Shown here piece after piece: positions 13,640-49,367 of a DNA stretch of 49,367 nt; the stretch's first letter is position 1, and each line of letters begins with the position of its first letter. A program made the position numbers and the translations under genes. The DNA comes from Chiloscyllium plagiosum (Eukaryota), in NCBI RefSeq assembly GCF_004010195.1, contig NC_057754.1, forward strand, positions 5,799,767 to 5,849,133. Reading direction: 5' to 3'. The notes under the pieces were generated by a model that was given only the letters and a program-made list of their open reading frames with translations, was not told the origin of the DNA and ran no database searches.

Positions 13640-14045
13640 AAATAGAATTATTCATAGAAGATTGTGGTGAACTGTCTGCCGATGTTATTGATGAGGTAGG
13701 CAGACGTCTTGATGATGGTAATCCAAAACGATCAGATAAATGTAGATTGGGGGAAAATGCAAAAGTTCTGTGAGCCCGCTGTCTATGAAACCTGGGGATA
13801 AAGGAATATAAGGTAAAGTAGCAATATTAATCATAAATTGCTGGCGTGATAGGTTACTGATGATGGCTGTTTGCCTGCCTGAAATTCAATTTTCATGCTC
13901 CTCGGATGCCGCGTGACTTGCTGTGTGTTTTGAGCATCACTCCGATGCTGAAACTGATCTCCAGCATCTGGAGTCCTCATTATCGCATGCAGGAAAGGAA
14001 ACAGAGTCATCATTAACAATTGTCTTTTGGACTGGAAGAATCTTT
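13640..14045 (+). mobile_element. Old CR1 RT fragment interrupted by a Penelope-derived short element (13855-13985)
   Basis: DEVGRRLDDGN..GIKG-like RT region resumes after the insert (aggaaacagagtc..ttggactggaag); insert reads CTGATGA..GAAA then ctcctcggatg..tctccagcatctggagtcctca. Confidence 0.6.
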
Positions 14046-21010: not shown

Positions 21011-21099
21011 TCAGTAGAGCTTGTGTCTGGAAAAGACTAGATGAACTGAAACTGTTTCCACTTAAATATGGGTCTCAACCACAGTCGGGGTGTGCAGAT

Positions 21100-24124: not shown

Positions 24125-25410
24125 TAGACTCATACAGTCAGAGATGTACAGCATGGAACCAGACTCTTTGCTCTATATCCCTCCAAACTATTCCTATTCA
24201 TATACCCATACAGATGTCTTTTAAATGTTACAATAATACTAGCCTCCACCACTTCCTCTAGCAGCTCATTCCATACACGTACCACCCTCTGTCTGAAAAA
24301 GTTGTCCCTCAGGTCTCTTTTATATCTTTCCTCTCTCACGCTAAACCGATTTCCTTTAGTTGTCGACTCTCGCACTCCAGGGAAGAGACTTTGTCTATTC
24401 ATCCTATCCATGCCCTTTAAGATTTTATGAACCTCAACAAGGTCACCCCTCAGCTCCTGACACTCCAGGGAGAACAACCCTTACCTATTGAACTTCTCCC
24501 TGTAACTCAAATCCTCCGACTCTGGCAACATCATTGTAAGTCTTTTTTGAGACCTTTCAAGTTTCACGACATCTTTCCGATAGGAAGGAGACCAGAATTG
24601 CACGCAATATTCTAAAATTGGCCCAACCAATATCCTGTACATCGGCAACATCAGCCCCAACTCCTATACTCAATGCTCTGACGAATAATGGAAAGCATAC
24701 CAAGCATTTCCTTCATTATGCTATCTATCCGTGACTCCAGTTTCAAGGAGCTATGTACCTACAGTCCAAGGTCTGTTTGTTCAGCATTACTCTGGAGGAC
24801 CTTACCAATAAGTGTATAAGTTGTGGTAAGATTTGCTTTCCCAAAAATGCAGAATCTCGCATTTATCTAAGTTATGCTCCATATGCCAGTTTTCAGGCCA
24901 TTGGCCCATCTGATCAAGTTCCCGTTGTAATCTGAGGTACCCTTCTTCGCTGTCCACTACACCTCCGATTTGGTATCATCTGCAAACTTACTAACGGTAC
25001 CTCTTATGCTCACATCCGAATCGTATATATAAATGACGAAAAGTAGTCGGCCCAGCATCGATCCTTGTGGCACTCCACTGGTCAGAGGTCTCCAATCTGA
25101 AAAAACATCCTACCATAACCACCTATGTCTTCTTCCTTTGAACCAGTTCTGTATCCAAGTAGCTAATTCTCACTGTATTCGGTGAGATCTAAACTGGGTA
25201 AACAATCGAATCTGTTCGAACAACTTACTGAAGTTCATATCGAAGACGTCCACTGCTGTGCCCTCATCAATCCTCGTTGTTACTTCTTAAAAAAAAAACT
25301 CTATCAAGTTTGTGAGACATGGTTTCCCACGCACAAAGCCGTGTGACTATTCCAAATCAGTCCTTGCCTTTCCACATACATTTACATCCTGTCCTTCAGG
25401 ACTCCTTGAC
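24125..25410 (-). mobile_element. CR1 LINE, 5'-truncated, relatively young
   Basis: ORF 24130-24477 FSLECQELRGDLVEVHKILKGMDR..FFRQRVVRVWNEL; FADD motif (gtatcatctgcaaa) at ~24972-24985; [11 protein letters not shown] at ~25045-25080. Confidence 0.92.
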
Positions 25411-27753: not shown

Positions 27754-28038
27754 TAACAGGTTTGCTTTCTGAGGTGTTGAGGGCATGAATGTTCTGTCGA
27801 GGTTCTTTGGGGATAAACATACTGAGGGGATGGTTTCTGAGGTACTGAGGGAGCACTATCTGGTGGTATAGGGTGCAGAAGGTGGAATGGTACAGACACA
27901 CTTCCCTAATCATTTCCTCAGGGTCCCCAAGGCAGGCTGGGTGGTCATCTGAGATGGAAGCCACCACCCCCCCCCCCCCCGCCCCCGCCCCCCACATTTT
28001 AGAAGATTAGATCAATACTCAGTGAAAAATAACACAAA

Positions 28039-28220
28039 GGAGAAAGTGACGTCTGCGGATGCTGGAGATCAGAGCTGAAAATGTGTTGCTGGAAAAGCGC
28101 AGCAGGTCAGGCAGCATCTAGGGAACAGGAGAAGAAAGGCTTATGCCCGAAACGTCGATTCTCATGTTCCCTGGATGCTGCCTGACCTGCTGCGCTTTTC
28201 CAGCAACACATTTTTAGCAG
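28039..28220 (+). mobile_element. Young fold-back Penelope-derived short element with 12-bp TSD
   Basis: Inverted arms aaaatgtgttgctggaaaagcgcagcaggtcaggcagcatc / gatgctgcctgacctgctgcgcttttccagcaacacatttt; direct repeat AAATAACACAAA at 28027-28038 and 28221-28232; partial hammerhead gaaga-a-aggc-ttat-gccc-gaaacgtc. Confidence 0.88.
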
Positions 28221-28789
28221 AAATAACACAAACACTTGCCTTAAACATGGATTGATGGAAAGCTGTCATGAATCTATCATCACTTTGTTTGGACACGGTT
28301 TAGAAACGCAGGCACCCAAACAGACCAATGCTGTCGATGCAAGGGGTGCTGCACAGGAAGATCCAAGAAGTCATTTGCAGTTGATGCCTGTCTCCCTGCA
28401 AAGGCAGAGGTCATCATCCGAGATCAGGGTTCAGTCCTGGGAGAAATCATCACTCCATCAAAACCTCAACCATGCCTCTGAGTGTGTGTGTGTAAGGTTA
28501 TATTGTGTATCCAAGAAAAGAAATTTCAGGTTGATTAGTCCTTGATTTTCAAAAAAAAACTGGCAAAGACACAAATGTGAAAGCTTTTAAAAGCTGCAAA
28601 GCTCACTTAACTGGGGTAAAGTGAATGCTGTAAAGCTCCCAAAAGAGGTTGGGATGGAAGGAACAAGCAACATTAGATTGAGAAGCGATAATATCATTCA
28701 GGTGCAGAGGTATTGCTGGAATGTCTATTCAGGATTAACTAAGTCATTTCAGGAGAGGAGAAAACAATTCCAGATGGATCAAAAACACC

Positions 28790-28905
28790 TTGGAGATAGT
28801 TTCTCAACCAACCTGCTCAGTGATGGTATGATATTCCTCTGGACCAGGTGGGACTTGAACCTGGATCTCCTAGCTCAAAGGTAAAGACGCTGCGACTGTT
28901 CCTTT
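28790..28905 (-). mobile_element. Second tRNA-derived SINE family, head region
   Basis: Minus strand ...tacctttgagctaggagatccaGGTTCAAGTCCcacctggtccagagg (B box). Confidence 0.55.
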
Positions 28906-30745
28906 CTACCTTTCCCAAGCTGTACAAGAGACCTAACACTTGGCTGCAGACATCAATTAAAAACAGCGAGTGTGACAAGGTCTTCAAGAAGGAAGGAGGG
29001 AGAAACCAGAAATCTACAGGCCAATCAGTCTGACGGTGGGGAAACTGTTGGAATGAATACTTAGGGACAGAATGAATCTGCACTTGGAGCAGGCAGGGGT
29101 TAATCAAGAACAGTAGGTGTGGTTTTATTAAAGGAAGGTCATATCTGACCAACCTATTGAATTTATCAAAGAGGTGACCAGATGTGTAGGTGACAGCAAT
29201 GCATTTGGTGTAAGCTACTTGGAATTCAGTGGGGCTTTTGCTAAGGTCCTGCATGGGACACTGATGGCAAAGACAAGAGCCCATGGCATCCAAGGAAATT
29301 TGGCAAATTGGATTCACAATGGGCTGAGTGGCAAGAAGCAGAGGGTGATGGTTGAGATGTGCTTCTGTAACTGGAAGCTTGTGCCCAGTGGGATCTTGCA
29401 GAGGCCAGTATTTGGTCCTCGCAGTTTCTAGGTTTATAGAAATAACTTTCACTTGAAAGTTGAAGGATTGATCAGTGAGTTCACGGATGATATGAAAAGT
29501 AGTGTGCTGGCAAACAGTGAGGAAGATAGAATTAGACCATAGGAAGACAAACATGGTAAGGGAATACATGATGAACTATAGGGCCCTGGGAAGCACTGAA
29601 GATCAGAGGGACCTTGTTGTACATGTCCACCAGTCACTTAAACACTGGGACAGGTAGTAAAATCGCCTTTCCTTGTCAAGCACAGAGTTTGAGCTGAGAA
29701 GTTCTGTCGGAACTGTCGAAAACATTGGTTCGGGGACAGCTAGCTTGTTGTCTGCATTTCTGCAATCCACATTTAAGGAGGGATATGCTAGCACTCGAGA
29801 CTTGGAAGGATGTTGTCTGAGCTGGAGAGTTTCGGTTATGAAGAGAGACTGGAAAGATTGGGTCATTTTTCTTCGACCAGAGAGATTGAGAGGGGAGTCG
29901 CAGGTAGATAGGATAGTGAAGAAGGCATTTTGTATGCTTTCCCTTATTGGTCAGAGCATTGAATGAAGGAGTTTTCTGTGCAATTCTGCTCTGATTCATG
30001 TAGAAAGGATGTTGTGAAATTTGAAAAGGTTCAAGAAGGATTTACAAGGATGTTGCCAGGTTTGGAGGGATGGAACTACAGGGATGGCTGAATAGGCTGG
30101 AGCTGTTTTCCCTGGAGTGTTGGAGGCTGAGGAGTGACCTTCCAGACGTTTATAAAATCATGGAGGCATGGATAGAGTAAATAGACAAGGTCTTTTCCCT
30201 GGGGTGTGGTAGTCCAGAACTAGAGGCCATAGGTTTAGGGTGAGAGGGGAAAGATTTACAAGGTCCTAAGGGCCAACAGTTTCATGCAACAGGCCGTGCG
30301 TGTATGCAAGAGGAAGTGCAGGACAGTACGCGGATAGTAACATATAAAAGGTATCGGGAGGGGTATTAGAAAACTCCACCACCACCTGATGAAGGAGCAG
30401 CGTTGTGAAAGTTAGTGGTACCAAATAAATCAGTTGGACTATAACCTGGTGTTGTGTGATTTTTAACTTGAATTGGAAGGGATTAGAGGGCCAAGTGTTG
30501 GTAAATGGGACTAGGTTAATTTTGGATATAGGTCGGCATGGACGAGTTGAGCTGAAGGATCTGTTTCTGTGTTGTACATCTGTTTGACTCCATGACATCA
30601 TTGAGATGTATAAAATAATGAGAGGTGTTGATTGGTTACACAGTAAGGAAATATTTCCCTTGATGGAGGAACCAGTTAAGACAACTGGAAGGCACTGCAG
30701 ATATTTAAGGAGGGGCAGGAGACTTAAGGGGAATGTCAGTGATAA
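28906..30745 (+). mobile_element. Nested CR1 LINE fragments: old RT region 28906-29990, younger 3' end 29995-30595, older 3' piece 30596-30745
   Basis: YRPISL and GFIKGRSYLTNL motifs, SYLEFSGAFAKVLHG..GIQGNLANWIHNGL; 3' tail gtcggcatggacgagttgagctgaaggatctgtttc. Confidence 0.85.
30366..30470 (+). mobile_element. Penelope 3' terminal fragment with hammerhead motif (30383-30417) inserted in CR1
   Basis: CAC-CTGATGA-A-GGAGC-agc-GTTGT-GAAA-GTTA-GTG, then AATAAA and gttggactataacctggtgttgtgtgatttttaactt; stem II partly mismatched. Confidence 0.7.
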
Positions 30746-31535
30746 AGTCATACAGCATGGAAACAGACCTTTTGGTTCCCCCCATGTCAATGCCAAACAT
30801 AATCCCAAACAAAACTAGTCCCTCCGCCTGCTCCTGGCCCATATCCCTCCAATTCTTTCCTGTTTGTCCAAATACCTTTTAAACATTGGGACTGTACCCG
30901 CATCCATTAATTCCTCTGGAAGTTCATTCACACACGAACCACTCTCTGTGTAGAAAAAGGTGACCCTCATTCCCCTTTTTAAATCTTTCTCCTCTCACTT
31001 TAAAAATATGTCCCCTAGTCCTGAAGTCTAGGGGGGAATAAGCTCCCTAGTCCAAGGGGAAAATTTCCTCACTATCTACCTTATGAACACTTCTCATTAT
31101 TTTGTACATCTCAACCATGTCATCGAGTAATAGAGACGTACAGCACAGAAACAGATCCTTCAACCCAACTCGTCCATGCTGACTGGATATCCTAACTTTC
31201 CCGATTCCCATTTACCAGTACTCCTGTTCCCTGGATGCTGCCTGACCTGCTGTGCTGTTCCAGCAATAAAGTTTCAACTGAAGTCTATCACCCGAGGGAA
31301 AATACATCTGACATTCAACTTATATATGCCCCTAATTATATTGTAACCTCTGTTAAGGTCGCCCCTCAAACTTCAAGCTCCTTTCCATATAAGTCAAACT
31401 CTCCAGTCCTGGCAACATCTTGTAAATATTTTCTGAACAGTTTAACAATACCCCTCCTATAACAGGGAGACCAGAATTGGACACAGTATTCTAGAAGAGG
31501 CCTGTGCAACCTCAACATGATGCCCTAACTCCGAT
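30746..31535 (-). mobile_element. Nested minus-strand CR1 3' ends plus a Penelope arm fragment (31222-31280)
   Basis: gtcatacagcatggaaacagacctttt tail; aaggtcgcccctca; ccagaattggacacagtattc. Confidence 0.75.
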
Positions 31536-31694
31536 ACTCATGGTCTGTGTAATGAAGGAAAAAGGCTTTCACCCAGAGGGTGGTGAAAAACTGAATTCAC
31601 TGCCAGAAAGGTATTGCAGACAGAAGCTCTCAAATCATTGAAGAAGTATTCAGAAGTGCACTTGCAATGCCAAGACGTACAAGGTGATGGGTCT

Positions 31695-32135
31695 TGAAGA
31701 AGGAGAACCGTTGCTGCCGTTTTTGAATCTGTAGTCTGTACTGTTTGCCTAAACGTCAATTTTCCTGCTCCTCGGATGCTGCCTGACTTTAGATTAGATT
31801 AGATTACTTACAGTGTGGAAACAGGCCCTTCGGTCCAACAAGTCCACACCGACCCGCCAAAGCGCAACCTACCCATTCCCCTACATTTACCCCTTTTACC
31901 TAACATTACGGGCACTTTAGCATGGCCAATTCACCTGACCTGCACATCTTTGGACTGTGGGAGGAAACCGGAGCACCCGGAGGAAACCCACGCAGACTCC
32001 ACACAGTCAGTCGCCTGAGTCGGGAATTGAACCCGGGTCTCTGGCGCTGTGAGGTAGAGCTGACTTGCTGGGCTTTTCCAGCCCCACTCAAATCTAGACT
32101 CTGGTTTCCAGTATCTGCAGTCCCTGTTTTTACCT
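31695..32135 (+). mobile_element. Penelope-derived arm split by a SINE insertion
   Basis: aaacgtcaattttcctgctcctcggatgctgcctgac (to 31787) resumes as tgacttgctgggcttttccagc..ctgcagtccctgtttttacc after 32060. Confidence 0.75.
31790..32059 (-). mobile_element. Young HE1/V-SINE-like SINE, slightly 5'-truncated
   Basis: (TTAGA)n tail, catggccaattcacctgacctgcacatctttggactgtgggaggaaaccggagcacccggaggaaacccacgcag, B box; CTGACTT direct repeat at 31783-31789 and 32060-32066. Confidence 0.9.
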
Positions 32136-33023
32136 TATATAAAGCGATGGGCCGAGGGCTGAGAAATGAAGTTACCATAGTTTGATGGTTGTTTTTGACT
32201 GGCACAGAATCAATGGGCTGAAGGGACTTGTTCTGCACTGTAGACCGCTGCGATTCAAAAAAAAGGACAATGAAGAGACTTTCATTGAGGTGTTGGCACT
32301 AACAATTGTCAATGTGGAAGGGCCACAAGATTGAGCTTTATTCTGAAACACTATCAGATCTGGATTTGAACTCTGTTCTCGCTCGCTTCCGGACCTGCTA
32401 CATTTCTTCAGCACTCAGCGTTTATTTGTGGCTACAAAGAGGATCTAAGGCTGCAGAGGTGAAATCTGATGGTTTGTTAGATGTGGGAAGGCAAAGCAGA
32501 CACTTCCTGATTGAAAATGAAAACTCAAATATAGAATTGTGAGGCTGCTAATGTATATTTTTTTCCACAAATCCAGACGACACAAGTTTCTGTGCAACAG
32601 CAGATGCTTTATTATCGGAGTGCAGTGCGAGATTCTCCATGTCCCTGAAAGTAGTCGTGTGTCTACTTGTGGTGATACTTCTCCATGAATCTCTGCTCTA
32701 CATACAAAGGCAGTACTTTTTATGATGGGCAATTATCAGTTTACAAGGCCCAGTGAATGTCAATGTCCTGGGATAACGAGTGAATGGATTACAGCGACTG
32801 ATTGTCGGATTATTCATGATCATGTGTCAATGGGAAGAGATTAAAACTGAAGGATTTTGCCTGTTTTCAATGGGGAATTCACATCCCTATGCTAATACGG
32901 AGAGGAAGCAAGATAATGGGAGCAGGAGGTAATTTAACAGGGTTGTGGCCAAGGCTATCAGTCTTGGCTGGGGAGGACAAATACGTTTGCCTGAGGCTGC
33001 AGAGGAATCCACATGTGTGACTG

Positions 33024-33160
33024 CAATTAGATTAGATTACATTACAGTATGGAAACAGGCCCTTCGGCCCAACAAGTCCACACCGACCCGCCGAATCGCA
33101 ACCCACCCATACCCCTACACCCAACACTACGGGCAATTTAGCATGGCCAATGCACCTGAC
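33024..33160 (-). mobile_element. HE1/V-SINE-like SINE, 3' fragment
   Basis: attagattagattacattacagtatggaaacaggcccttcggcccaacaagtccacaccgaccc..aatttagcatggccaat. Confidence 0.88.
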
Positions 33161-33678
33161 CAATGGATTCTTTCTCTAAGATTCAGTTATCCTACTGAGA
33201 TGTTCTGTCTATTCTGTAATTGATACTGTAGTGAGTCTGTTTCACAGTGGAATGTTAACTCTTGAGTGCCCTGTATGCCTTGAAAGAGAATTAAAACATT
33301 GAACTGATCCCTTTCTGGCTTTATAATGTCCTCACCACAGTCAGGGATGCCAAACTCCTCCAGTCAGATATAAACCAGCCCCTCACTCACTGACACCAAT
33401 CACCCCCTGTCGAATATAAACCACCCCACAGGCACAAATCTCCCCATGTCTGATTTCACCCTGCCCCACAGACAGTGACAACATTTTCCTCCAATCTGAT
33501 ATAAACCAACCCCACAGACACTGACAATAATCTCTGCCTGTCTGATATAAACCAGACCCACAGTCCCTGACACCAACCTCCCCCTGTCTGATATAAACCA
33601 GACCCACAGTCCCTGACACCAATCTCCCCCTGTCTGATATAATCCAGCCTCACAGTCACTGACGCCAATCACCTCCAA

Positions 33679-33773
33679 GGTAAAAACAATGACTGCAGAT
33701 GCTGGAAACCAGATTCTGGATCAGTGGTGCTGGAAGAGCACAGCAATTCAGGCAGCATCTGAGGACAGGCAAC
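33679..33773 (-). mobile_element. Penelope-derived terminal fragment inserted in the satellite
   Basis: ggtaaaaacaatgactgcagatgctggaaaccagattctggatcagtggtgctggaagagcacagc. Confidence 0.75.
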
Positions 33774-33954
33774 CCAGTCACTGACACCAATCTCCTCCTG
33801 TCTGATATAAAGCAGCCCCACAGTCACTGACAGCAATTACCTTCTGTCTGACATAAACCAGCCCCACAGTCACTGACACAAATCTCCCCCGTCTGATATA
33901 AACCAGCCCCACAGACACTGACACCAATCTCTGACTGTCTGATATAAACCAACT

Positions 33955-34268
33955 AGGTAAAAACAAGGACTGCAGATGCTGGAAAACAGAGTCCAGAAGA
34001 GAGTGGTGCTGAAAAAGCATGGCAGGTCAGGCAGCATCCGAGGAGCAGGAAAATCGATGTGTCGGGCAAAAGTCCTTCATCAGGAATAAAGGCAGGGAGC
34101 CTGCTGAGTGGAGAGATCTTGCAGAGAGAGGAGGAAAGCCTCTTCAAGGCAGGCACCCTTGCAAGAGGATTCGCAGTAGGCTTAAAACCAACTAGATAAA
34201 GACAAGGACTGCAGATGTTGGAAACCAGAGTCTAGATTAAAGTGGTGCTGGAAAAACAAAGGTAACGT
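33955..34268 (-). mobile_element. Two nested Penelope-derived terminal fragments in the satellite
   Basis: Outer direct repeat TGATATAAACCAACT at 33940-33954 and 34269-34283; inner copy bounded by aaaccaacta; minus-strand CTGATGA at 34077-34083 with GAAA mutated to GACA. Confidence 0.78.
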
Positions 34269-34509
34269 TGATATAAACCAACTCCACAGTCACTGACAAC
34301 AATCTCCTCCTGTGTGATATAAACCAGTTCTACAGTAACTGACACCAATTCCCCCATGTCTGATATAAACCAGCCCCACAGTCACTGACGCCAATCTCCC
34401 CTGTCTGAGAAAAACCAGCCCACAGTCACTGACGCCAATCTCCCCCTGTCTGATATAACCCAGCCCCACAGACACTGACGCCAATCTCCCCCTGTCTGAT
34501 ATAAACCAG

Positions 34510-34611
34510 CAATGGAAATGTGTTGCTGGAGAAGCGCAGCAGGTCAGGCAGCATCTAGGGAACAGGAGAATCGACGTTTCGGGCATTAGCCTTCCTGAAG
34601 AAGGGCTAATG
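34510..34611 (+). mobile_element. Fold-back Penelope-derived element; right arm lost in gap
   Basis: Left arm ...gaatcgacgtttcgggcattagcc turns into ttcCTGAAGAagggctaatg, then N. Confidence 0.8.
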
Positions 34612-37600
34612 NNNNNNNNNNNNNNNNNNNNNNNNNNNNNTATAAACCAGCCCCACAGTCACTGACACCAATCTCCCCTTGTCTGATATAAACCATACCC
34701 ACAGTCCCTGACAACAATCTCCCCCTGTCTGATATCAACCAGTCCCACTATCACTGAAACCAATCTCCCCCTGTCTGATAAACGAGCCCCACAGTCAGTG
34801 ACGCCATCTCTGCCTGTCTGATATGAACCAACTAGGTAAAAACAAGGACTGTAGATGCTGAAACTAGAGTCTAGATTAGAGTGGTGCTGGAAAAACACAG
34901 GTAGCGTTGATACAAACCAACACCACAGTCACTGACACCAATCTCCCCTTGTCTGATATAAATCAGTCCCACAGTCACTGACACCAATCTCACCTTGTCT
35001 GATATAAACCAGACCCACAGTCCCCCACACACCAATATCCCCCTGTCTGATATAAACCAGCTCCACAGTCTCTAACACCAATCTCCCCCTGACTGATATA
35101 AACCAGCTCACAGTCACTGACACAAATTTCCTCCTGTCTGATATAAATCAGTCCAATAGTCACTGACACCAATCTCACCTTGTCTGATATAAACCAGACC
35201 CACAGTCCCTCACACACCAATACACCACTGTCTGATATCAACCAGCTCCACAGTCACTGACACCAATCTGCTCCTGTCTGACATAAAACAACCCCTTTTT
35301 CACTGACGCCAATCTCCCCCTGTCTGAAATAAAACAGCCCCACAGTCACTGACACCAATTTCTGCATGTCTGATATAAACCAGCCCCACAGACACTGACA
35401 CCAATCTCCCGCCGGCTGATATAAACCAATTCACAGTCACTGACACCAATCTCCCGCTGACTGATATAAACCAGACTCACAGTCACTGACACCAATCTCC
35501 CCCTGTCTGATATCAACCATACCCACAGTCACTGACACCAATTTCCTCCAGTCTGATATAATACAGCCACACAGTCACAGACACCAATCTCCCACTGTCT
35601 GATATAAACCAGACCCACAGTCACTGACACCAATCTCCCTCTGTCTGATATAAACCATCCCCATAGTCACTGATACCAATCTCCCCCTTTCTGATCTAAA
35701 CCACCCCCACAGTCACTGACGCCAATCTCCTCCAGTCTGATATAAACCAGCACCACAGTCACTGATGACAATCTCCTCTTGTCTGACATAAACCATCCCC
35801 TTTTTCACTGACGTCAATCTCACCCTGTCTGACATAAACCAGCCCCACAGTCACTAACGCCAATTTCTGCATGTCTGATACAAAACAGCTCCATAGTCCC
35901 TGACACCAATCTCCCCTTGTCTGATATAACCCAGACCCTCAGTCCCTGACACCAATCTCCCCCTGTCTGATATAAACCAGACCCACAGTCACTGACACCA
36001 ATCTCCCCTTGTCTTTTCTGAACCAGCCCCACAGTCACTGACACCAATCTCCCCTTGGCTGATATAAACCAGAGCCACAGTCCCTGACACCATTCTCACC
36101 CTGGCTGATATCAAACAGCTCCACAGTCAATGACACAAATCTCCCCTTGTCTGATATAAACCAGACACACAGTCACTGACATCATTCTCCCCCTGTCTGA
36201 TATAACCCAGCCTTACAGTCACTGACACCAATCTCCCCCTGTCTGATAAAAACCAGACCCACAGTCACTGACTCCAAACTCCCTCTGCTGATATAAACCT
36301 GACCCACAGTCACTGACACCAATCTCCCCCTGTCTGATATAAACCAGCTCCACAGTCACTGACACCAATCTCCCCCTGTCTGATATAAACCAGCTCCACA
36401 GTCCCTGACACCATACTCCCCCTGTATGATATAAACCAGCTCCACAGTCCCTGACACCAATCTCCCCCTGTCTGATATAAACCATCCCCACAGTCAATGA
36501 CACCAATCTCTGCCTGTCTGATATGAACCAACTTGGTAAAAACAAGGATTGGAGATGGTGAAACGAGAGTCTAGATTAGAGTGGTGCTGGAAAAACACAG
36601 GTAGCGTTGATATAAACCAACACCACAGTCACTGACACCAATCTCCCCCTGTCTGATATAAACCAGCTCACAGTCACTGACACAAATTTCCTCCTGTCTG
36701 ATATAAATCAGTCTCATAGTCACTGATACCAATCTCCCCCTGTCTGATATAAACCAGACCCACAGTCACTGACACCAATCTCCCCTTGTTTCATATGAAC
36801 CAGCCCCACAGTCCCTGACAATAATCTCCCTCTGTCTGATATCAACCAGCTCCACAGTGACTGACACCAATCTCCCTCTGCCTGATTGAATCCAGCCCCA
36901 CAGTCACTGTCACCATTTTCTCCTGTCTGATATAAACCAGCCCCAAAGTCACTGGCACCAATCTCCCCTTCTCTGATTTAAACCAGACCCAAAGTCACTG
37001 ATGCCAATCTCCTACAATCCGATATAAACCAGCTCCACAGTCACTGACGCCAATCTCCTCCTGTCTGACATAAACCAGCCTCTTTTTCACTGACGCCAAT
37101 CTCCCCCTGTCTGATATAAACCAGCCCACAGTCACTGACACCAATCTCCACCTGTGTGATATAAACCATACCCACAGTCACTGACACCAATTTCCTCCAG
37201 TCTGATATAATCCAGCGCCACAGTCACTGACACCAATCTCCCCCTGTCTGATATTAACCAGCCCCAAAGTCACTGATACCAATCTCCCCCTTTCTGATAT
37301 AAACCAGACCCACAGTCACTGACGCCAAGCTCCTCCAGTCTGATATAAACCAGCTCCACAGTCACTGAAGACAATCTCCCCCTGTCTGACATAAACTAGC
37401 CCCACAGTCACTGAAACGAATTACTGCATGTCTGATAAAAACCAGCCCCATAGTACCTGATACCACTCTCTGCCTGTCTGATAATATCCAGTCCCATAGT
37501 CCCTGACACCAATCTCTGCCTGTCTGATATAATCCAGCCCACAGTCACTGACACCAATCTCGCGCTGTCTGATATAAACCATACCACATTCACTGACACC

Positions 37601-40261
37601 AATTTCCTCCTGTCTGACATAAACCAGCTCCACAGTCACTGAAGACAATCTCCTCCTGTCTGACATAAACCAGCCCCACAGTCACTGACGCCAATCTCCC
37701 CTGTCTGACATAAACCAGCCCCACAGTCACTGACACCAATTTCTGCATGTCTGATATAAACCTGCCCCATAGTCCCTGACACCAATCTCTGCCTGTCGGA
37801 TATAATCCAGCTGCATAGTCCCTGACACCAATCTCCACTTGTCTGATATAACCCAGAACCACAGTCCCTGACACCAATCTCCCCCTGTCAGATATAAACC
37901 AGACCCAGTCACTGACACCAATCTCACCTTGTCTTATATGAACCAGCCCCACCGCCACTGACACCAATCTCCACTTGTCTGATATAAACCAGACCCACAG
38001 TCCCTCACACACCAATCTCCCCCTGTCTAATATCAACCAGCTCCACAGTCACTGACACCATTCTCCCCCTTTCAAATATAACCCAGCCTGACAGTCACTG
38101 ACACCAATCTCACCCTGTCTGATATAAACCAGACCCACAGTCACTGACGCCAATCTCCCCTTGTCTTATATGAACCAGCCCCACAGTCACTGACACCAAT
38201 CTCCCCTTGTCTGATATAAACCAGACCCACAGTCACTGACACCAATCTCCCCCTGTCTGATATAAACCATAACCACAGTCACTGACACCAATTTCCTCCA
38301 GTCTGATATAATCCAGCTCCTCAGTCACTGACACAAATCTCCTCCTGTCTGGTATAAACCCGACCCACAGTCATTGACACTAATCGCCTTCTGTCTGATA
38401 TAAACCAGCCCCATAGTCCCTGACACCAATGGCTGCCTATCTGATATAATCCTGTCCCATAGTCCCTGACACCAATCTCTGCCTGTCTGATATAATCCAG
38501 CCCACAGTCACTGACACCAATCTCGCCTTGTCTTATATGAACCAGCCCCACAGTCACTGACACCAATCTCCCCTTGTTTGATATAAACCAGACCCACAGT
38601 CCCTGACACCAATCTCCCCCGGTCTGATATCAACGAGCTCCACAGTCACTGACACCAATCTTCCCCTGTCTGATATAATCAAGCCCCACAGTCACTGACA
38701 CCATTCTCCCCCTTTCTGATATAACCCAGCCTTTCAGTCACTGACACCAATCTCCCCATGTCTGATATAAACCAGCCCCAAAGTCACTGACACCAATCTC
38801 CCCTTGTCTTATATGAACCAGCCCCACAGTCACTGACACCAATCTCACTTTGTCTGATATAAACCAGCCCCACAGTCACTGACGCCAATCTCCCGCTGTC
38901 TGATATAAACCAGTCCAGAGTCACTGACACTAATCTCCCTCTGTCTGATATAAACCATACTCACAGTCACTAACACCAATTTGCTCCAGTCTGATATAAT
39001 CCAGCCTGACAGTCACTGACACCAGTCTCCCCCTGTCTGATATAAGCCAGACCCACAGTCACTTACACCAATCTCCCCCTGTCTGATATAAACCAGACCC
39101 ACAATCGCTGACGCCAATCTACTCCAGTCTGATATAAACCAGTTCCACAATAACTGACGCCAATCTCCTCCTGTCTGACATAAACCAGCCCCTTTTTCAC
39201 TGACACCAATCTCCCCTGTCTGGCATAAACCATCCCCACAGTCACTGACACCAATTTCTGCATGTCTGATATAAACCAACCCCACAGACACTGACACCAA
39301 TCTCCCGCTGTCTGATATGAACCAGTCCCAAATTCACTGATACCAATCTCCCCCTTTCTCTTATAAACCAGACCCACAGTCACTGACGCCAATCTCCTCC
39401 AGTCTGATATAAACCAGCTCCACAGTCACTGATGAAAATCTGCTCCTGTCTGACATAACCCAGCCCCTTTTTCACTGACGCCAATCTCCCCTTGTCTGAT
39501 ATAAACCAGCCCCATCGTCCCTGACACCAATCTCTGCCTGTCTGATATAAACCAGACTCACAGTCACTGACACTAATCTCCCTCTGTCTGATATAAACCA
39601 TACTCACAGTCACTGACACCAATATCCCCCTTTCTGACATAAACCAGCCCCACAGTAACTGACACCAATTTCTGCATGTCTGATATAAACCAGCCCCAGA
39701 GACACTGACACCAATCTCCCGATGACTGATATAAACCAGACTCACAGTCACTGACACCACTCTCCCTCTGTCTGATATAAACCATACCCACAGTCACTGA
39801 CACCAATTTCCTCCAGTCTGATATAATCCAGCCCCACAGTCACTGAGACCAATCTCCCACTTTCTGATATAAACCAGACCCACAGTCACTGACCCCACTC
39901 TCCCTCTGTCTGATATAAACCAGCCCCACAGTCACTGATACCAATCTCCCCCTTTCTGATATAAACCATCCCCACAGTCACTGACGCCAATTTCCTGCAG
40001 TCTGATATAAACCAGTTCCACAGTCACTGATGACATTCTCCTCTTGTCTGACATAAACCATCCCCTTTTTCACTGACACCAAACTCACCCTGTCTGACAT
40101 AAACCAGCCCCATAGTCCCTGACACCAAACTCTGCCTGTTTGATATAATCCAGTCCCATAGTCCCTGACACCAATCTCTGCCTGTCTGATATAATCCCGC
40201 CCCACTGACACTGACACCAATCTCCCCTTGTCTGATATAAACCAGACTCTAAGTCACTGAC

Positions 40262-40467
40262 GGAATCTTTGAGGAGAACGTGAGGTCTGCAGATGCTGGA
40301 GATCAGAGATGGAAATGTGTTGCTGGAAAAGCGCAGCAGGTCAGGCAGCATCNNNNNNNNNNNNNNNNNNNNNNATTCCTGAAGAAGGGCTAATGCCCGA
40401 AACGTCGATTCTCCTGTTCCCTAGATGCTGCCTGACCTGCTGCGCTTTTATAGCAACACATTTCCAT
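40262..40467 (+). mobile_element. Young fold-back Penelope-derived element with 15-bp TSD in the satellite
   Basis: Direct repeat CTCTAAGTCACTGAC at 40247-40261 and 40468-40482 (a satellite variant not noticed elsewhere in the array); near-perfect inverted arms; central 22-N gap. Confidence 0.88.
40375..40410 (+). ncRNA. Minimal (type I, PLE-style) hammerhead ribozyme with intact core
   Basis: ATTC-CTGAAGA(40379-85)-A-GGGC-taat-GCCC-GAAA(40399-402)-C-GTC^-GATT; perfect 4-bp stem II, palindromic ACGT helix III, GUC cleavage triplet; stem I short. Confidence 0.75.
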
Positions 40468-43400
40468 CTCTAAGTCACTGACACCAATCTCCCCTTGTCT
40501 GATATAAACCAGCCCCACAGTCACTGACGCCAATAACCTCCAGTCTGATATAAACCAGCTTCACAGTCACTGAAGACAATCTCCTCCTGTCTGGCATTAA
40601 CCAGCCTCTTTTTCACTGACGCCAATCTCCCCCTGTCTGACAGAAACCAGCCCCACAGTCACTGACACCAATTTCTGCATGTCTGATATAAACCAGCCCA
40701 ATAGTGCCTGACACCAATCTCTGCCTGTCTGATATAATCCACCCCCTTAGTCCCTGACACCAATCTCTGCCTGTCTGATATAATCCAGCCCCCCAGTCAC
40801 TGACACCAATCTCCCCTCTGTCTGATATCAATCATATCCACTGTCACTGACACCCATTTCCTAAAGTCTGATATAATCCAGCCCCAAAATCACTGACAAT
40901 AATCTCCCCATGTCTGATATAAACCAGACCCACAGTCACTGACGCCAATCTCCCCCTGTCTGATATAAACCAGCCCCACAGTCACAGATACCAATCTCCC
41001 CCTTTCTGATATAAACCAGACCCACAGTCACTGACGCCAATCTCCTCCAGACTGATATAAACCAGACCCACAGTCACTGACGCCAGTCTCCCCCTGTCTG
41101 ACATAAACTAGCCCCACAGACACTGACCCCAATTTCTGCATGTCTGATATAAACCAGCCCGGTAGTCCCTGAAACCAATCTCTGCCTGTCTGATATAATC
41201 CACCCCAATAGTCCCTGACACCAATCTCTGCCTGTCTGATATAATCCAGCCCCACAGACACTGACACCAATCTCCCGTTGTCTGATATAAATCAGCCCAC
41301 AGTCACTGACACCAATCTCCCCTTGTCTGATATAAACCATACCCACAGTCACTGACACCAATTTCCTAAAGTCTGATGTAATCCAGTCCCCAGTCACAGA
41401 CACTAATCTCACCCTGTCTGATATAAATCAGACCCACAGTCACTGACACCAATTTCCCCCTGTCTGATATAAACCAGACCCACAGTCACTGACACCAATC
41501 TCCCTCTGTCTGATATAAACCAGCCCCACAGTCACTCATACCAATCTCCCCCTTTCTGATATAAACCAGACCCACAGTCACTGACGCCAATCTCCTCCAG
41601 TCTGATATAAACCAGACCCACAGTCACTGATGACGATCTCCTCCTGTCTGACATAAAGCAGCCCCTTTTTCACAGACGCCAATCTCCCACTCTCTGACAT
41701 AAACTAACCCCACTGTCACTGACACCAATTTCTGCATGTCTGATATAAACCTGCCCCATAGTCCCTGACAAAAATCTCTGCCTGTCTGATATAATCCAGC
41801 CCCATAGTCCCTGACACCAATCTCCTCCAGTCTGATATAAACCAGCTCCACAGTCCATGACACCAATCTCCCCCGTCTGATATCAACCATCCCCACAGTC
41901 ACTGACACCAATCTCCCTCGGTCTGATATAATCCAGCCCCTCAGTCACTGACACCATTCTTCCCCTGTCTGAGACAAACCAGACCTACAATCACTGACAC
42001 CAATCTCCCCGTGTCTTATATGAACCAGCCCCACAGTCACTGACACAAATCTTCACTTGTCTGAAATGAACCAGCTCCACAGTCCCTGACACCAATCTCC
42101 CCCTGTCTGAAATGAACCAGCTCCACAGTCACTGACACCAAACTCCCCCTGTCTGATATCATCAAGCCCCACAGTCACTGACACCATTCTCCCCCTGTCT
42201 GATATAAACCAGACCCAGAGTCACTGACACAAATCTTCCCTTGTCTGATACAAACCAGCTCCAAAGTCACTGACACCAATCTCCCGCTGTCTGATATAAA
42301 CCAACCCGCAGTCACTGACACCAATCTTCCCTTGTCTGATATAAACCAGACCCACAGTCACTGACACCAATCTCCCCTTGTCTAATATAATCCATATCCA
42401 CAGTCACTGACATCAATTTCCTCCAGTCAATGTAATCCAGCCCCACAGTCACTGACACCAATCTCCCCCTGTCTGATATAAACCAGCCCCGCAGTCCCTG
42501 ATACCAATCTCCCCCTTTCTGATATAACCCAGACCCACAGTCACGGACGCCAATCTCCTCCAGTCTGATATAAACCAGCTCCACAGTCACTGATGACAAT
42601 CTCCTCCTGTCTGAAATAAACCAGCCCATTTTTCACTTACGCCAATCTCCCCCTGTCTGACATCATCCAGCCCCACAGTCACTGACACCAATCTCCCCCT
42701 GTCTGATATAATCCAGCCGCACAGTCACTGACACCAATCTTCCCCTGTCTGATATAAACCCGACCCAACGTCACTGACACCAATCTCCCCCTGTCTGATA
42801 TAAACCATCCCCCCAGTCACTGACTCCATTTTCCCCCTGTCTGATATAAACCAGACCCAACGTCACTGAGGCAAATGTCCTCCAGTCTGATATAAACCAG
42901 CTCCACAGTCCCTGACACCAATCTCCCCCGTCTGATATAAACCATCCCCACAGTCACTGACACCAATCTCCCTCTGTCTGATATAATCCAGCACCACAGT
43001 CACTGACACCATTCTTCCCCTGTCTGATATAAACCCGACCCAACGTCACTGACACCAATCTCCCCCTGTCTGATATAAACCAGCCCCACAGTCACTGACA
43101 CCAATTTCTGCATGTCTTGTATAAACCAGCCCCACAGTCACTGACGCCAATCTGCTCCTGTCTGACATAAACCAAACCCTTTTTCACTGACGCCAATCTC
43201 CCACTTTCTGGCATAAACCAGCCCCACAGTCACTGACACCAATTTCTGCATGTCTGGTATCAACCAGCCCCACAGACACTGACACCAATCTCCCGCTGTC
43301 TGATATAAACCAGACTCACAGTCACTGACACCAATCTCCCCCTGTCTGATATAAACCATACCCACAGTCACTGGCAACAATTTCCTCCAGTCTGATATAA

Positions 43401-45848
43401 TCCAGCCCCACAGTCACTGACACCAATCTCCCCCTGTCTGATATAAACCAGCCCCACAGTCACTGACACCATTCTCCCTCTGTCTGATATAAACCAGCCC
43501 CACAGTCACTGATACCAATCTCCCCTTTCAGACATAAACCAGCCCCACAGTTACTGACACCAATTTCTGCATCTCTGATATAAACCAGCCCCACAGACAC
43601 TGACACCAATCTACCGCTGTCTGATATAAACCAACCCACAGTCACTGACACCAATCTCCCGCTGACTGATATAAACCAGACCCACAGTCATTGACCCCAC
43701 TCTCCCTCTGTCTGATATAAACCAGCCCCACAGTCACTGATACCAATCTCCCCCTTTCTGATATAAACCACCCGCACAGTCACTGACACCAATTTCCTGC
43801 AGTCTGATATAAACCAGTTCCACAGTCACTGATGACATTCTCCTCTTGTCTGACATAAACCATCCCCTTTTTCACTGACGCCAATCTCACCCTGTCTGAC
43901 ATAAACCAGCCCCACAGTCACTGACGCCAATTTCTGCATGTCTGATATAAACCAGCCCCATAGACCCTGACACCAATCTCTGCCTGTCTGATATAATCCA
44001 GCCCCATAGTCCCTGACACCAATCTCTGCCTGTCTGATATAAAGCAGCCCACAGTCACTGACATCAATCTCCCTCTGTCTGATATAAACCAGCCCCACAG
44101 TCACTGACGCCAATATCCTCCAGTCTGATATAAACCAGCTTCACAGTCACTGAAGACAATCTCCTCCTGTCTGCATTAACCAGCCCCTTTTTCACTGACG
44201 CCAATCTCCCCCTGTCTGACAGAAACCAGCCCCACAGTCACTGACACCAATTTCTGCATGTCTGATATAAACCAGCCCCATAGTGCCTGACACCAATCTC
44301 TGCCTGTCTGATATAATCCAGCCCCACAGTCACTGACACCAATCTCCCGCTGTCTGATTTAAACAAGCCCACAGTCACTGACACCAATCTCCCCTCTGTC
44401 TGATATAAATCATATCCACTGTCACTGACACCCATTTCCTAAAGTCTGATATAATCCAGCCCCACAGTCACTGACAATAATCTCCCCTTGTCTGATATAA
44501 ACCAGACTCACAGTCACTGACGCCAATCTCCCTCTGTCTGATATAAACCAGCCCCACAGTCACTGATACCAATCACCCCCTTTCTGATATAAACCAGACT
44601 CACAGTCACTGACACCAATCTCCCCCTGTCTGATATAAACCATACCCACAGTCACTGACACCAATTTCCTCCAGTCTGATATAATCCAGCTCCACAGTCA
44701 CTGACACCAATCTCCCCCTGTCTGATATAAACCAGATCCACAGTCACTGACGCCAATATCCTCCAGTCTGATATAAACCAGCTCCACATGCACTGACGCC
44801 AATCTCCCCCTGTCTGACATAAACCAGCCCCACAGTCACTGACATCTATTTCTGCATGTCTGATATAAACCAGCCCCATAGTCTCTGACACAAATCTCTG
44901 CCTGTCTGACATAATCCAGCCCCACAGTCACTGACACCAATCTCCCCCTGTCTGATATAAACCCGACCCACAGTCACTGACACCAATCTCCCCCTTTCTG
45001 ATATAAACCAGACCCACAGTCACTGATGCCAATCTCCCCTTGTCTGATATAAACAAGCCCCACAGTCACTGACACCAGTCTCTGCCTGTCTGATATAAAC
45101 CAACCCATAGTCACTGATACTAATTTCTGCATGTCTGATATAAACCCCACCCACAGTCACTGACACCAATCTCCCCCTTTCTGACATAAACTAGCCCCAC
45201 AGTCACTGACACCAATTTCTGCATGTCTGATATAAACCAGCCCCGTAGTCCCTGAAACCAATCTCTGCCTGTCTGATATAATCCACCCCAATAGTCCCTG
45301 ACACCAATCTCTGCCTGTCTGATATAATCCAGCCGCACAGACACTGACTCCAATCTCCCGTTGTCTGATATAAATCAGCCCACAGTCACTGACACTAATC
45401 TCCCCTTGTCTGATATAAACCAGACTCACAGTCACTGACACCAATCTCCCCCTGTCTGATATAAACGAGCCCCACAGTCACTGACACCAATCTCCCTCTG
45501 TCTGATATAAATCAGCCCCACCGTCACTGACACCAATCTCTCCCTGTCTGATATAAACCAGCTCTACAGTCACTGACACCAATCTCTGCCTATCTGATAT
45601 AAACCATCTCTACAGTCACTGACACCAATCTCTGCCTGTATGATAGAAACGAGCCCCTTTTTCACTGACACCAATCTCCCCTGATATAAACCAGTCCCCT
45701 AGAGAATGATACCAAACTCGCCCTGTCCAATTTAAACCATTCCCACAAAATCTTTCACCAATTTCCTCTTGTCTGATATAAACCAGCTCCTAGACCACTG
45801 TCACCAATCCCTCCCTTTCTGATATAAACTAGCCAGACAGTCAGTGAC

Positions 45849-46050
45849 GAAAATGTGTTGCTGGAAAAGCGCAGCAGGTCAGGCAGCATCCAAGGAGCAG
45901 GGGAATCGACGTTTTGGGCATGATTCCTGAAGAAGGGTTCATTCCCGAAACTTCGATTCCCCTGCTCCTTGGATGCTGCCTGACCTGCTGCGCTTTTCCA
46001 GCAACACATTTTCAGCTCTGATCGCCAGCATCTGCAGTCCACACTTTCTC
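45849..46050 (+). mobile_element. Fold-back Penelope-derived element with 16-bp TSD and hammerhead core (45927-45954)
   Basis: Direct repeats CCAGACAGTCAGTGAC (45833-45848) and CCAGACAGTCAATGAC (46051-46066); CTGAAGA-A-GGG-ttcatt-CCC-GAAA-CTTC. Confidence 0.88.
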
Positions 46051-47073
46051 CCAGACAGTCAATGACACCAATCTCTGCCAGTCTGGTTGAAATTAGCCCC
46101 ACAAACGCTGACAATAATCTCCCCACGTCTGATATACACCAGCCCTGCAGTCACTGACACCAATCTCCTCCTGTCTGATATAAACCAGCCCCTTATTCAC
46201 TGACACCAATCTCCCCCTGTCTGATATAAACCAGCCCCACAGTCACTGACACCAATCTCTCCCTGTCTGATATAAACCAGCCCCACAGTCACTGACACCA
46301 ATCTCTCCCTGTCTGATATAAACCAGCCCCACAGTCACTGACACCAATCTCTCCCTGTCTGATATAAACCAGCCCCACAGTCACTGACACCAATCTCTCC
46401 CTGTCTGATATAAACCAGCCCCACAGTCACTGACACCAATCTCTCCCTGTCTGATATAAACCAGCCCCACAGTCACTGACACCAATCTCTCCCTGTCTGA
46501 TATAAACCAGCCCCACAGTCACTGACACCAATCTCTCCCTGTCTGATATAAACCAGCCCCACAGTCACTGACACCAATCTCCCCCTGTCTGATATAAACC
46601 AGCCCCACAGTCACTGACACTAATCTCTTCAGCTCTGACATAAACTTTGATTCCCATTCTTGCTGGTAGGAAAGTAGGGCCATGTGTGCAATGTTCAAGT
46701 CAGTCAGAATTGTCAGCAAGGATTCATCAACACTTTCTTTTTGGAGATTTTAATGCCGGGGAACTTTTCAGATATCAAATTTCAGTTCTTTTCCCAGGGA
46801 GCAAGTTCCATTTGAAGCAGAAATTTAATATTAGTTGCACACTAATTGCCTGTGAAATTTTTCTGAATTTGACAGAACGATCACAGAGAGCTGATTTTAA
46901 AGGGTCACGATACCCCAAAGAACGCTGTCAGCTACAATGACAAGAATCTTCAACTCTACTCTAGTGATAAGGAAGTAACTTCAGCAGAAACAAACCCGAA
47001 ATGTAAGAATGTACTTGATTCAATGCTGGATGTCATGAGCAACAGGAGTAATGGATTATTCCAACCTCTGCAG

Positions 47074-48202: not shown

Positions 48203-49367
48203 CATAGAACATAGAAAAGTACAGTACAGAACAGGCCCTTTGGCCCACGATGTTGTGACAAGGATTAATCCTAATGTAAAATAAAATAACTTAACCTATG
48301 CACCCCTCAATTCACTGCTATCCATGTGCATGTCCAGTAGTTGCTTAATTATCCCTAATGACTCTGCTTCCACCACTGGCAACAGCATTCCATACGTTCA
48401 CAACTCTCTGCGTAAAGAACCTACCTCTGATGACCCGTTGAACCCTTCTCTTAATAGCTTAAAACTATGACTCCTCGTGCCAGTCAATCCTGCCCTATGG
48501 AAAAGTCTCTGGCTATTGACTCTATCTAGTATTCTCATTACCTTGTATACCTCGATCAGGTCTCCTCTCCTCCTCCTTCTCTCCAGAGAGAAAAGTCTGA
48601 GCTTCGTCAATCCCTCTTCATAAGGCAAGCCCTCCAGTCCAGCCAGCCCTGATAAACATTCTTTGCACCCTCTCCAAAGCCTCTGCATCTTTCCTTAATA
48701 CAGTGCAATTATTATATATAAGATATATTAGCAACAAAGGGATTTTAAAAATGATATTCGTGAATTTGAGAATAATGAGACTTAAACTTGATTCCCCTGT
48801 AAATGAAAGCCAAAACACCACATGCTTTCGAAATAACCCTATCCACTTGGGTGGAATATTTGCGGGAACTATATACTTGAACACAAAGTTCCCTCTGTTC
48901 CTCCACACTGCCAAGAATATGGTCTTTAATCCTGTGTTCAGCGTTCTAGTTCAACCTTTCAAATTGCATTATTTCGCATTTATCCAGGTTTAATTCCATC
49001 TGCCATTTTTCAACCCAGATCTGCATCCTGTCTATGTTGTGCTGCAGCCTGCAATAGCCCTCGATACTATCAACAGCGCCTCTAACCTATGTGCCATCTG
49101 CAAATTTACTAACCCACCCCTCAATCTCCTCATCCAAGTCATTTATAAAAAAACTACAAAAAGCAGAGATCCAAGAACAGAACCCTGTGGGACACCACTC
49201 AAGACTGACCTCCAGGCAGAACTTGCCATCTACAACCACTCTCTGCCTTCTGTCAGCTAGCCAATTCTGAATCTAAATAGCCAAATCTCCCAAAACCCAT
49301 ACCTCCTGACTTTATGGATGAGCCTACCATGGGGAACCTTATCAAATGCCTTGCTGAAGTCCTTATA
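48203..49367 (-). mobile_element. CR1 LINE, 3' ~1.2 kb (continues beyond window)
   Basis: (CATAGAA)n tail; ORF GLPYEEGLTKLRLFSLERRRRRGDLIEVYKVMR; ccatctgcaaattt (KFAD); gaaccctgtgggacaccact (SGVPQGS); ggaaccttatcaaatgcc (AFDKVP). Confidence 0.93.

Follow-up and report, generated by a model that had tools for sequence, protein, structure and literature searches.

Four short inverted elements and their target sites

The window, a 49,367-nt stretch of Chiloscyllium plagiosum contig NC_057754.1, contains four young copies of a short element whose two arms are inverted relative to each other, at the places where an earlier note on this DNA had reported them. Two of the four are gapped at or near the junction between the arms. 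Positions within the element are numbered relative to the cut predicted for its hammerhead ribozyme (+, 3' side; −, 5' side). The inverted arms, described earlier as near-perfect and about 50–70 bp long, are real, and their measured length is 48–88 nt: 60 nt at 95% identity in copy 1, 48 visible nt at 96% identity in copy 3 and 88 nt at 91% identity in copy 4. These three copies have total sizes of 182, 206 and 202 bp, respectively. The folding energy of copy 4 is −155.9 kcal/mol (z −20.4), a value equalled by none of 200 shuffles.

Copy 1 consists of a minus-strand arm with a tail (28039..28133, +3 to +97), which begins just 3' of the predicted cut and has no ribozyme, and a plus-strand tail-less arm (28131..28220, −26 to about +62/+64) with the ribozyme minus its first two core bases; the two arms overlap by 3 nt. 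Copy 2 has a tail-less arm on the minus strand (34511..34591, −19 to +62) and the start of a second arm on the plus strand (34592..34611, from −31) that includes the 5' half of the ribozyme. The remainder of this second arm, already noted as lost, falls in a gap (34612–34640). The tailed arm of copy 3 (40262..40352, minus strand) is visible from +18 to +108, its junction is hidden by a 22-N gap (40353–40374), and the plus-strand tail-less arm (40375..40467) runs from −32, at the gap edge, to +61. Copy 4 joins a minus-strand tail-less arm (45849..45923, −16 to +59) to a plus-strand tailed arm (45923..46050, −32 to +96), in which the ribozyme has a U-U pair in stem II and an interrupted palindrome in helix III. 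The arms of copy 4 are identical to each other over 52 nt and differ from the other copies at 4–6 of these 52 positions; this identity fits equally a single template that was copied twice and two RNAs of the same locus. Copies 2 and 3 have a sequence variant in common, and the starts of their tail-less arms differ (−19 versus −32 or beyond).

Three copies carry their own target-site duplication (TSD), of 12, 15 and 16 bp, in keeping with the earlier claim of independent insertions flanked by 12–16 bp repeats. That of copy 1 is an exact 12-bp repeat (28027..28038 and 28221..28232), and these are its sole two plus-strand occurrences in the window. The 15-bp TSD of copy 3 (40247..40261 and 40468..40482) is a variant unique to these two flanks in the surrounding array, and that of copy 4 spans 16 bp with 1 mismatch (45833..45848 and 46051..46066); any TSD of copy 2 is concealed by its gap. 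The target of copies 2–4 is a 46-bp satellite array of about 289 units (33351..46628), which the earlier note did not mention. The TSD variants of copies 3 and 4 each occur at two places in the array, allowing up to 1 mismatch, and since these are only the two flanks, they are true duplications; satellite phase is thereby ruled out as their source. Duplication of the satellite as the origin of copies 2–4 is likewise ruled out, since these copies differ in phase, orientation and variant.

The gaps inside two of the four copies could raise the suspicion of a library artefact or of an abundant repeat assembled wrongly, and inverted structures of Penelope-like elements (PLEs) have been described as troubling short-read assembly (PMC8557442). 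Copies 1 and 4, however, are gap-free and have copy-specific TSDs, and their arms differ by a few bases and carry a tail on one side only. We regard an artefact as scarcely credible.

Older Penelope-like relatives in the window

A 14-bp TSD (6638–6651 and 7665–7678) flanks an older, 5'-truncated Neptune-type PLE of 1,013 bp on the minus strand (6652..7664), which matches Pfam GIY-YIG proteins in tblastn searches (E 1e-22 to 1e-24). It retains a decayed linker and GIY-YIG C-terminus at about 6960–7580, followed by a 3' UTR, and a related hammerhead end (6655–6745; 72.5% identity with the arm of copy 4 across 91 nt) located about 210 bp 3' of the decayed GIY-YIG frame. Its 3' end lies at +62, where the tail-less arm of copy 2 also stops, and it is without an inverted arm. 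The hairpins thus correspond, through this older relative, to the pLTR/3' end of an element whose C-terminus is a GIY-YIG endonuclease, which bears out the Penelope link proposed earlier. At 72.5% identity, the 1-kb element is an older relative of the young copies rather than their direct master; an autonomous PLE partner was not seen in the window. The Cys-rich CX2-5CXXC linker that marks Neptune/Nematis elements is present in the matching proteins P0003, P0020, P0053 and P0075, inside the aligned span; it is degenerate in the window copy, which has no RT domain for tree placement.

An older related family is also present as a partial tandem with a 15-bp flanking repeat (33955..34268, minus strand). 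Here the tail continues for about 110 nt in sequence that is not pLTR, after which comes another hammerhead-to-tail end. A Pfam search of five decayed frames returned no significant family, and a word-indexed protein search with one decayed frame recovered 0 of 67 candidates; an unindexed protein search with the next decayed frame gave 152 matches (best E 6e-10). Exact-pattern scans for more copies found none in viral contigs, metagenome contigs or prokaryote genomes.

Junctions, outer ends and the one-sided tail

The earlier note had placed a single turning point at the hammerhead core. Instead, the arms adjoin by their 5' ends, with 0–3 nt of overlap, at a point that varies between copies; these ends lie at +3/−26 in copy 1, −19/−31 in copy 2 and −16/−32 in copy 4. 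All three visible junctions differ, contrary to what a propagating family with a shared fold-back point would show, although with four copies, two of them gapped, later deletions at the palindrome centre could mask a common junction. The outer ends cluster in two groups some 35 nt apart, at +59, +61, +62 and +64 and at +96, +97 and +108, so that one arm carries an extra 33, 37 and 47 nt in copies 1, 4 and 3, respectively. A one-end tail of the 30–40 bp type known from EN+ PLE insertions is therefore present in all three copies with both outer ends visible. The units are head-to-head, inverted and 5'-truncated, with a TSD around the whole unit in three of four copies and hidden by the gap in the fourth.

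One arm starts at −31/−32 in copies 2, 4 and 3 (the last at the gap edge), as it does in an older copy at 13854. The start in three of the four young copies suggests a tighter distribution than random stalling, though not a significant one: 3 of the 10 visible arm ends, a set that excludes the gap-edge end of copy 3, fall within this 2-nt window (p 0.10–0.34, post hoc), and we rejected a significant pile-up on these values. The three ends could nonetheless mark a fixed RNA 5' end. One reading of these starts is that the hairpins descend from palindromes centred at about −32, a fixed template RNA 5' end or self-priming point, and were later trimmed by deletions that broke the centre. Long palindromes are unstable. 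Palindromes at PLE inverted junctions have been interpreted as self-priming (PMC3846280), and in the Drosophila virilis Penelope an intron end coincides with the start of helix I on its 5' side (PMC4209133). Even so, none of the three visible junctions retains an untrimmed palindrome, copy 1 would require trimming of both arms, the related ends of the 1-kb PLE and at 33967 extend well past −32, and the clustering is not significant; we consider this reading improbable. Under it, each insertion would still be PLE-made, with a short, discrete RNA as its template. Self-priming of one cDNA was rejected as the sole mechanism on the layout of copy 1, in which neither arm contains the other (+3 to +97 versus −26 to +64), so that such a cDNA would need a later deletion.

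A minimal hammerhead as a probable passenger

The sole complete minimal type I hammerhead motif seen in the window is that of copy 3 (40375..40411, plus strand), a match with 0 mismatches in which stem II folds and cleavage is predicted. It comprises a core at 40379–40385, a bulged A, a 4-bp stem II (40387–40398), palindromic helix III bases and a weak stem I, and the predicted cut after 40406 is the one given in the earlier note. Dimer cleavage of PLE hammerheads is reportedly the subject of Lunse et al. 2017. With up to 3 mismatches the pattern matched four times, against 0 expected from 100 shuffles, which upholds the identification of a minimal hammerhead. The full core that had been quoted for the whole family, by contrast, holds for copy 3 and not for copy 1, which is without the first two core bases, copy 4, in which it is altered, or copy 2, in which it is cut by the gap. 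The full set of minimal hammerhead features (CUGANGA and GAAA boxes, a bulge before stem II, G10.1-C11.1 and palindromic 15.2-16.2) likewise occurs in one of four copies, copy 3, being broken in copies 1 and 4 and hidden in copy 2. Scanned against Rfam with an E cut-off of 5, the window gave no hammerhead and one unrelated match (E 2.2).

The motif resembles the minimal PLE hammerheads of PMC4209133 in its type I core, bulged base before stem II, G-C at the stem II base, palindromic helix III bases, weak short helix I and mostly solo or opposite-strand paired occurrence. Its stem II is 4 bp long, unlike the 6–8 bp of schistosome and fly minimal hammerheads. Closely spaced minimal hammerheads on opposite strands were noted earlier in Schistosoma PLE remnants, and sharks are unnamed in the available part of the account (PMC4209133).

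The core shows no more conservation than the arms (1/41 versus 12/275 differences in young arms, 6/68 versus 39/413 in all arms; p = 1 in both), in a comparison with little power at the present divergence, and stem II has no compensatory change among eight arms, also a low-power check. A transcript switching between hairpin and ribozyme had been suggested. In the folding model, the ribozyme fold of copy 4 would cost +28.8 kcal/mol relative to the hairpin, with a predicted ensemble fraction of about 5e-21, and a penalty of about 29 kcal/mol makes such a switch implausible; for lone arms the cost is +2.3 and +4.8 kcal/mol.

These results bear on the view taken in the earlier note, of a non-autonomous MITE- or retrozyme-like fold-back family that is transcribed as a unit, re-inserted by PLE proteins and capable of the switch. 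The copies are indeed young, similar in total size and independently inserted, and the junctions of copies 2 and 4 are alike. Mobilisation in trans is possible for a pLTR on its own (PMC3846280), and pLTRs are the source of retrozymes (bioRxiv 2026.07.22.740005). Against a propagating family stand the three differing junctions, the unprivileged core, complete in one copy of four, and the placement of the ribozyme, which is on the tailed arm in copy 4 and on the tail-less arm in copies 1 and 3. Against the switch, the antisense arm is also transcribed first. We judge this view very unlikely.

Comparison with retrozymes and MITEs points the same way. Like the non-LTR retrozymes described in Cervera and De la Pena 2020 (PMC7229834) and Li, Clavereau, Pollet 2026 (bioRxiv 10.64898/2026.07.22.740005), the hairpins are non-coding, related to pLTRs and associated with a type I hammerhead; unlike those head-to-tail tandem repeats with a ribozyme in every unit, they pair two copies head to head, and no more than one ribozyme in each pair is complete. 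No head-to-tail unit was found in the window, in which none of six tail motifs is followed within 400 nt on the same strand by a core motif; the tandem repeats of the window are satellites.

MITEs are short, non-coding elements with symmetric terminal inverted repeats and a TSD. The hairpins share their shortness, lack of coding sequence, inverted repeats and TSD, but the tail makes their outer ends asymmetric, their TSDs vary (12, 15 and 16 bp), their inner structure is copy-specific (3/3 junctions differ), and their sequence is that of a retroelement end.

Proposed origin of the hairpins

We propose that each hairpin is probably a dead end, generated in place when a Neptune-type EN+ PLE inserted, and composed of two head-to-head 3'-end stubs. 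[quoted passage not shown] Both cDNAs would halt after 75–130 nt, within the structured ribozyme region or close to it, and microhomology would join their ends. The ribozyme would be a passenger from the pLTR, often severed where the arms join and enclosed in the hairpin.

Fresh Chlamydomonas PLE insertions have a median length of 128 bp (PMC9977147). The inverted-pLTR insertions of EN+ PLEs described in Arkhipova et al. 2013 (PMC3846280) and Craig et al. 2021 (PMC8557442) likewise combine a head-to-head inverted 5'-truncated copy, a 30–40 bp tail on one of the two pLTRs, a TSD round the whole unit and assembly gaps. The hairpins differ in that both arms are only 75–130 nt, and therefore no ORF lies between them; their TSDs are 12–16 bp, versus 8–10 bp in the rotifer examples of these sources.

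In the anole Poseidon element PAc (Frangieh et al. 2024, PMC11167929), two internal reverse transcription starts similarly bound the tail just downstream of the hammerhead, and in vitro both target strands are cut and extended, as we infer for the hairpins. This two-site priming is known from a Poseidon, not a Neptune, element. PAc belongs to the Poseidon clade and uses AT-rich targets, whereas the relative identified here is Neptune-like and three of four copies lie in the 46-bp satellite. The main text of the same paper does not describe double-stub hairpins; it reports no reads ending at the hammerhead cut, and cleavage was not needed in vitro.

A more specific version of the proposal, which we consider speculative and rather unlikely, is that the stubs were copied from a discrete RNA of about 130–140 nt with its 5' end fixed at −32 and a second class at the cut site, possibly circular. 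The last five letters of the long tail of copy 3 are the five letters at −32 to −28.

Implications

As they stand, the hairpins illustrate clearly and compactly, in the genome of a shark-type animal, a pattern of PLE insertion that is already known. No published account of shark double stubs was found in the literature searched, a set with few subscription journals and no repeat databases. The finding is useful for repeat annotation, with the caution that hairpins of this kind can pass for MITEs or regulatory RNAs, and double stubs are potential material on the formation of PLE inverted ends and on in vivo cleavage by PLE hammerheads. If the stubs do derive from a discrete short RNA, thousands of them would record the 5' ends of PLE template RNA and two-ended priming, they would give an in vivo test of PLE hammerhead cutting, and some of them might transpose again as whole hairpins.

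Four inverted insertions in repeat-rich DNA

The evidence comes from this one window, which is repeat-rich eukaryotic DNA with four gaps, and from published papers; element positions are numbered from the predicted ribozyme cut (+1 is 40407 in copy 3). The four fold-back insertions claimed by the earlier note are present: copy 1 at ~28039–28220, copy 2 from 34511 into a gap, copy 3 at 40262–40467 and copy 4 at 45849–46050. Their inverted arms are likewise real, with 91–96% identity, but span 48–88 nt rather than the proposed ~50–70 bp: they measure 60 nt in copy 1 (95% identity), 48 visible nt in copy 3 (96%) and 88 nt in copy 4 (91%), which has a predicted fold of −155.9 kcal/mol (z −20.4).

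Copies 2–4 are housed in a 46-bp satellite of ~289 units, so their flanking repeats needed control. The 15-mer flank of copy 3 and the 16-mer flank of copy 4 each occur in the array at two places at ≤1 mismatch, namely the two flanks of the copy itself, and are therefore real target-site duplications (TSDs). The flank word of copy 2 is found 74 times, and a gap covers the right end of this copy, together masking any TSD. Satellite phase or orientation differs among copies 2, 3 and 4, which are thus separate insertions. The claim of independent insertions, three of them with their own TSDs (12–16 bp), is upheld. The TSDs of copies 3 and 4 (40247–40261 and 45833–45848) cover nearly the same stretch of the satellite unit, positions 12–26 and 11–26, which terminates in a 9-bp palindrome, although the two copies are oppositely oriented. 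A target preference for that stretch is possible, with two cases only.

The 13-kb satellite array (33351–46628) is strongly C-skewed and holds at least eight pieces derived from Penelope-like elements (PLEs). Elsewhere in the window, a degenerate, G-skewed ~32-bp minisatellite region (16600–21100) is followed by a 45-bp array of ~32 units (21192–22605). Other decayed retroelement frames (LINE-like RT, C-terminal pieces), either hit with a single long query or apparent in the ORF set, occur at ~3000–3500, 24130–24900, 29000–30000 and 48500–49300.

Fixed outer ends and variable inner ends

Every copy consists of two sense-strand pieces of one sequence, placed 5′ end to 5′ end with the 3′ ends facing out. 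The outer ends form two classes, tail-less (+59, +61, +62, +64) and tailed (+96, +97, +108), and all three copies with both ends visible have one arm of each. Inner ends lie at +3 and −26 in copy 1 (3-nt overlap), −19 and −31 in copy 2, and −16 and −32 in copy 4 (1-nt overlap); the tail-less arm of copy 3 ends at −32 or beyond, its junction hidden in a 22-N gap. The arm reaching the ribozyme start is tailed in copy 4 and tail-less in copies 1 and 3. The outer ends are therefore common to the family and the fold-back point is not, contrary to the single turning point at the hammerhead core proposed earlier. In all four copies the + strand bears the arm extending deepest into the ribozyme (28131, 34592, 40375 and 45923), tail regardless, a bias with a chance of ~1 in 8.

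Origin in a Penelope-like element

A blastn search with the copy 4 arm found eight further, older pieces, and a profile search gave 13 related loci in the window in all. About 210 bp 5′ of the related end at 6655–6745 lies a decayed reading frame, with which an unindexed protein search returned 152 matches. Among proteins matching a decayed frame in the window, the top one is labelled whale shark and the others with names are skates, which makes a cartilaginous fish the likely source. Pfam GIY-YIG was detected at E < 0.002 in five of the eight long matches scanned and weakly in a sixth, and four GIY-YIG-bearing matches align back to 6968–7561 (E 1e-22 to 1e-24), which bears out the suggested link to Penelope. 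The matching GIY-YIG proteins contain a Cys-rich linker, described in PMC8557442 as a mark of Neptune and Nematis PLEs.

This older, 5′-truncated 1,013-bp PLE (6652–7664, − strand) has its own 14-bp TSD and stops at +62, where tail-less arms end. Its end shares 72.5% identity with the young arm over 91 nt; it is a relative of the young copies, not their master. Another relative, at 33955–34268, is in partial tandem, its tail continuing into further element sequence, which fits reverse transcription that begins within the RNA.

Three other PLE-derived sequences were observed. An older single PLE end (31745–31787 and 32060–32139) is split by a SINE-like insert of ~270 bp, which resembles the shark HE1 SINE and has a 7-bp duplication. 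A short PLE tail stub with identical junctions occurs three times in the satellite (34190–34280, 34829–34915 and 36529–36615), apparently multiplied through duplication of the array rather than through retrotransposition. The last ~55 residues of protein P0031, from a gene model for skate neuromedin-U receptor 1, are those of a PLE GIY-YIG C-terminus, probably because the gene prediction read through into a repeat.

The hammerhead motif

The hammerhead pattern has four matches in the window at ≤3 mismatches versus 0 expected. An Rfam scan of the window gave no hammerhead match, which would be no surprise given that the motif lacks helix III. The full core attributed to the copies holds for copy 3 only, which carries a complete minimal type I motif by the definition in PMC4209133. 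In copy 1 the motif is missing two core bases at its start, and the base of its stem II is mismatched; in copy 4 stem II contains a U–U and the helix III palindrome is gone; in copy 2 a gap interrupts the motif.

The core is no better kept than the arms: differences from the column majority number 1/41 core versus 12/275 arm letters in young arms, and 6/68 versus 39/413 with older copies added (p = 1 in both comparisons, at low power). No compensatory base-pair changes were seen among the compared arms. Forcing the ribozyme fold costs a modelled 28.8 kcal/mol in whole copy 4, whereas the cost for lone arms is 2.3 and 4.8. Whichever strand is transcribed, the antisense arm comes first. The hairpin/ribozyme switch of the earlier note is therefore unlikely.

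Formation of the hairpins

PMC3846280 describes an inverted pLTR that bears a one-sided tail of 31 bp and lies within one TSD, and PMC8557442 lists 5′-truncated inverted copies and a 30–40 bp tail on a single end among the general features of PLEs. In vitro, two internal RT start sites bound the tail, and both target strands are cleaved and extended (PMC11167929). By the tests run, the hairpins belong with the inverted-plus-tail insertions of endonuclease-bearing (EN+) PLEs, whose behaviour is the same. Retrozymes, in contrast, have head-to-tail units, which are missing here, and unlike MITEs the hairpins have asymmetric ends, variable TSDs and a variable centre. They fit neither class, and the proposed MITE- or retrozyme-like family is improbable. 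Literature search listings yielded no published description of these shark double stubs.

What the window shows is a pair of fixed outer ends, inner ends that vary from copy to copy, short overlaps and TSDs of 12–16 bp. Both ends of a staggered cut may prime cDNA at the two start sites; both cDNAs would stop early, and the two short products would become joined. A self-primed palindrome followed by deletion at its centre could also produce such junctions, and PMC3846280 interprets them as self-priming; in copy 1, however, neither arm contains the other, which favours two RNA-templated cDNAs. The copy 1 arms differ at 2 of 52 sites, one of them also variable among the copies, which hints weakly at two templates. 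Those of copy 4 are identical over 52 nt, with 4–6/52 differences from other copies; the two arms therefore share a source sequence.

Arm ends near the predicted cut

Copies 2 and 4 each have an inner end at −31/−32, as does an older copy at 13854, and the visible arm of copy 3 begins at −32, at the gap edge; three of ten visible ends within this 2-nt window corresponds to p 0.10–0.34. Three other ends, at +3, +5 and +7, lie just beyond the predicted cut. The last five letters of the copy 3 tail equal the first five of the ribozyme, but none of the six tails in the window runs into a core. In similar shark repeats the tail simply continues into the element body. It seems improbable that the stubs were copied from a discrete short RNA with its 5′ end fixed at −32. 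The hairpins are real and ordinary, well explained as a further instance of the known PLE insertion pattern, and these hints from arm ends and tail would be important only if sharp peaks appear genome-wide.
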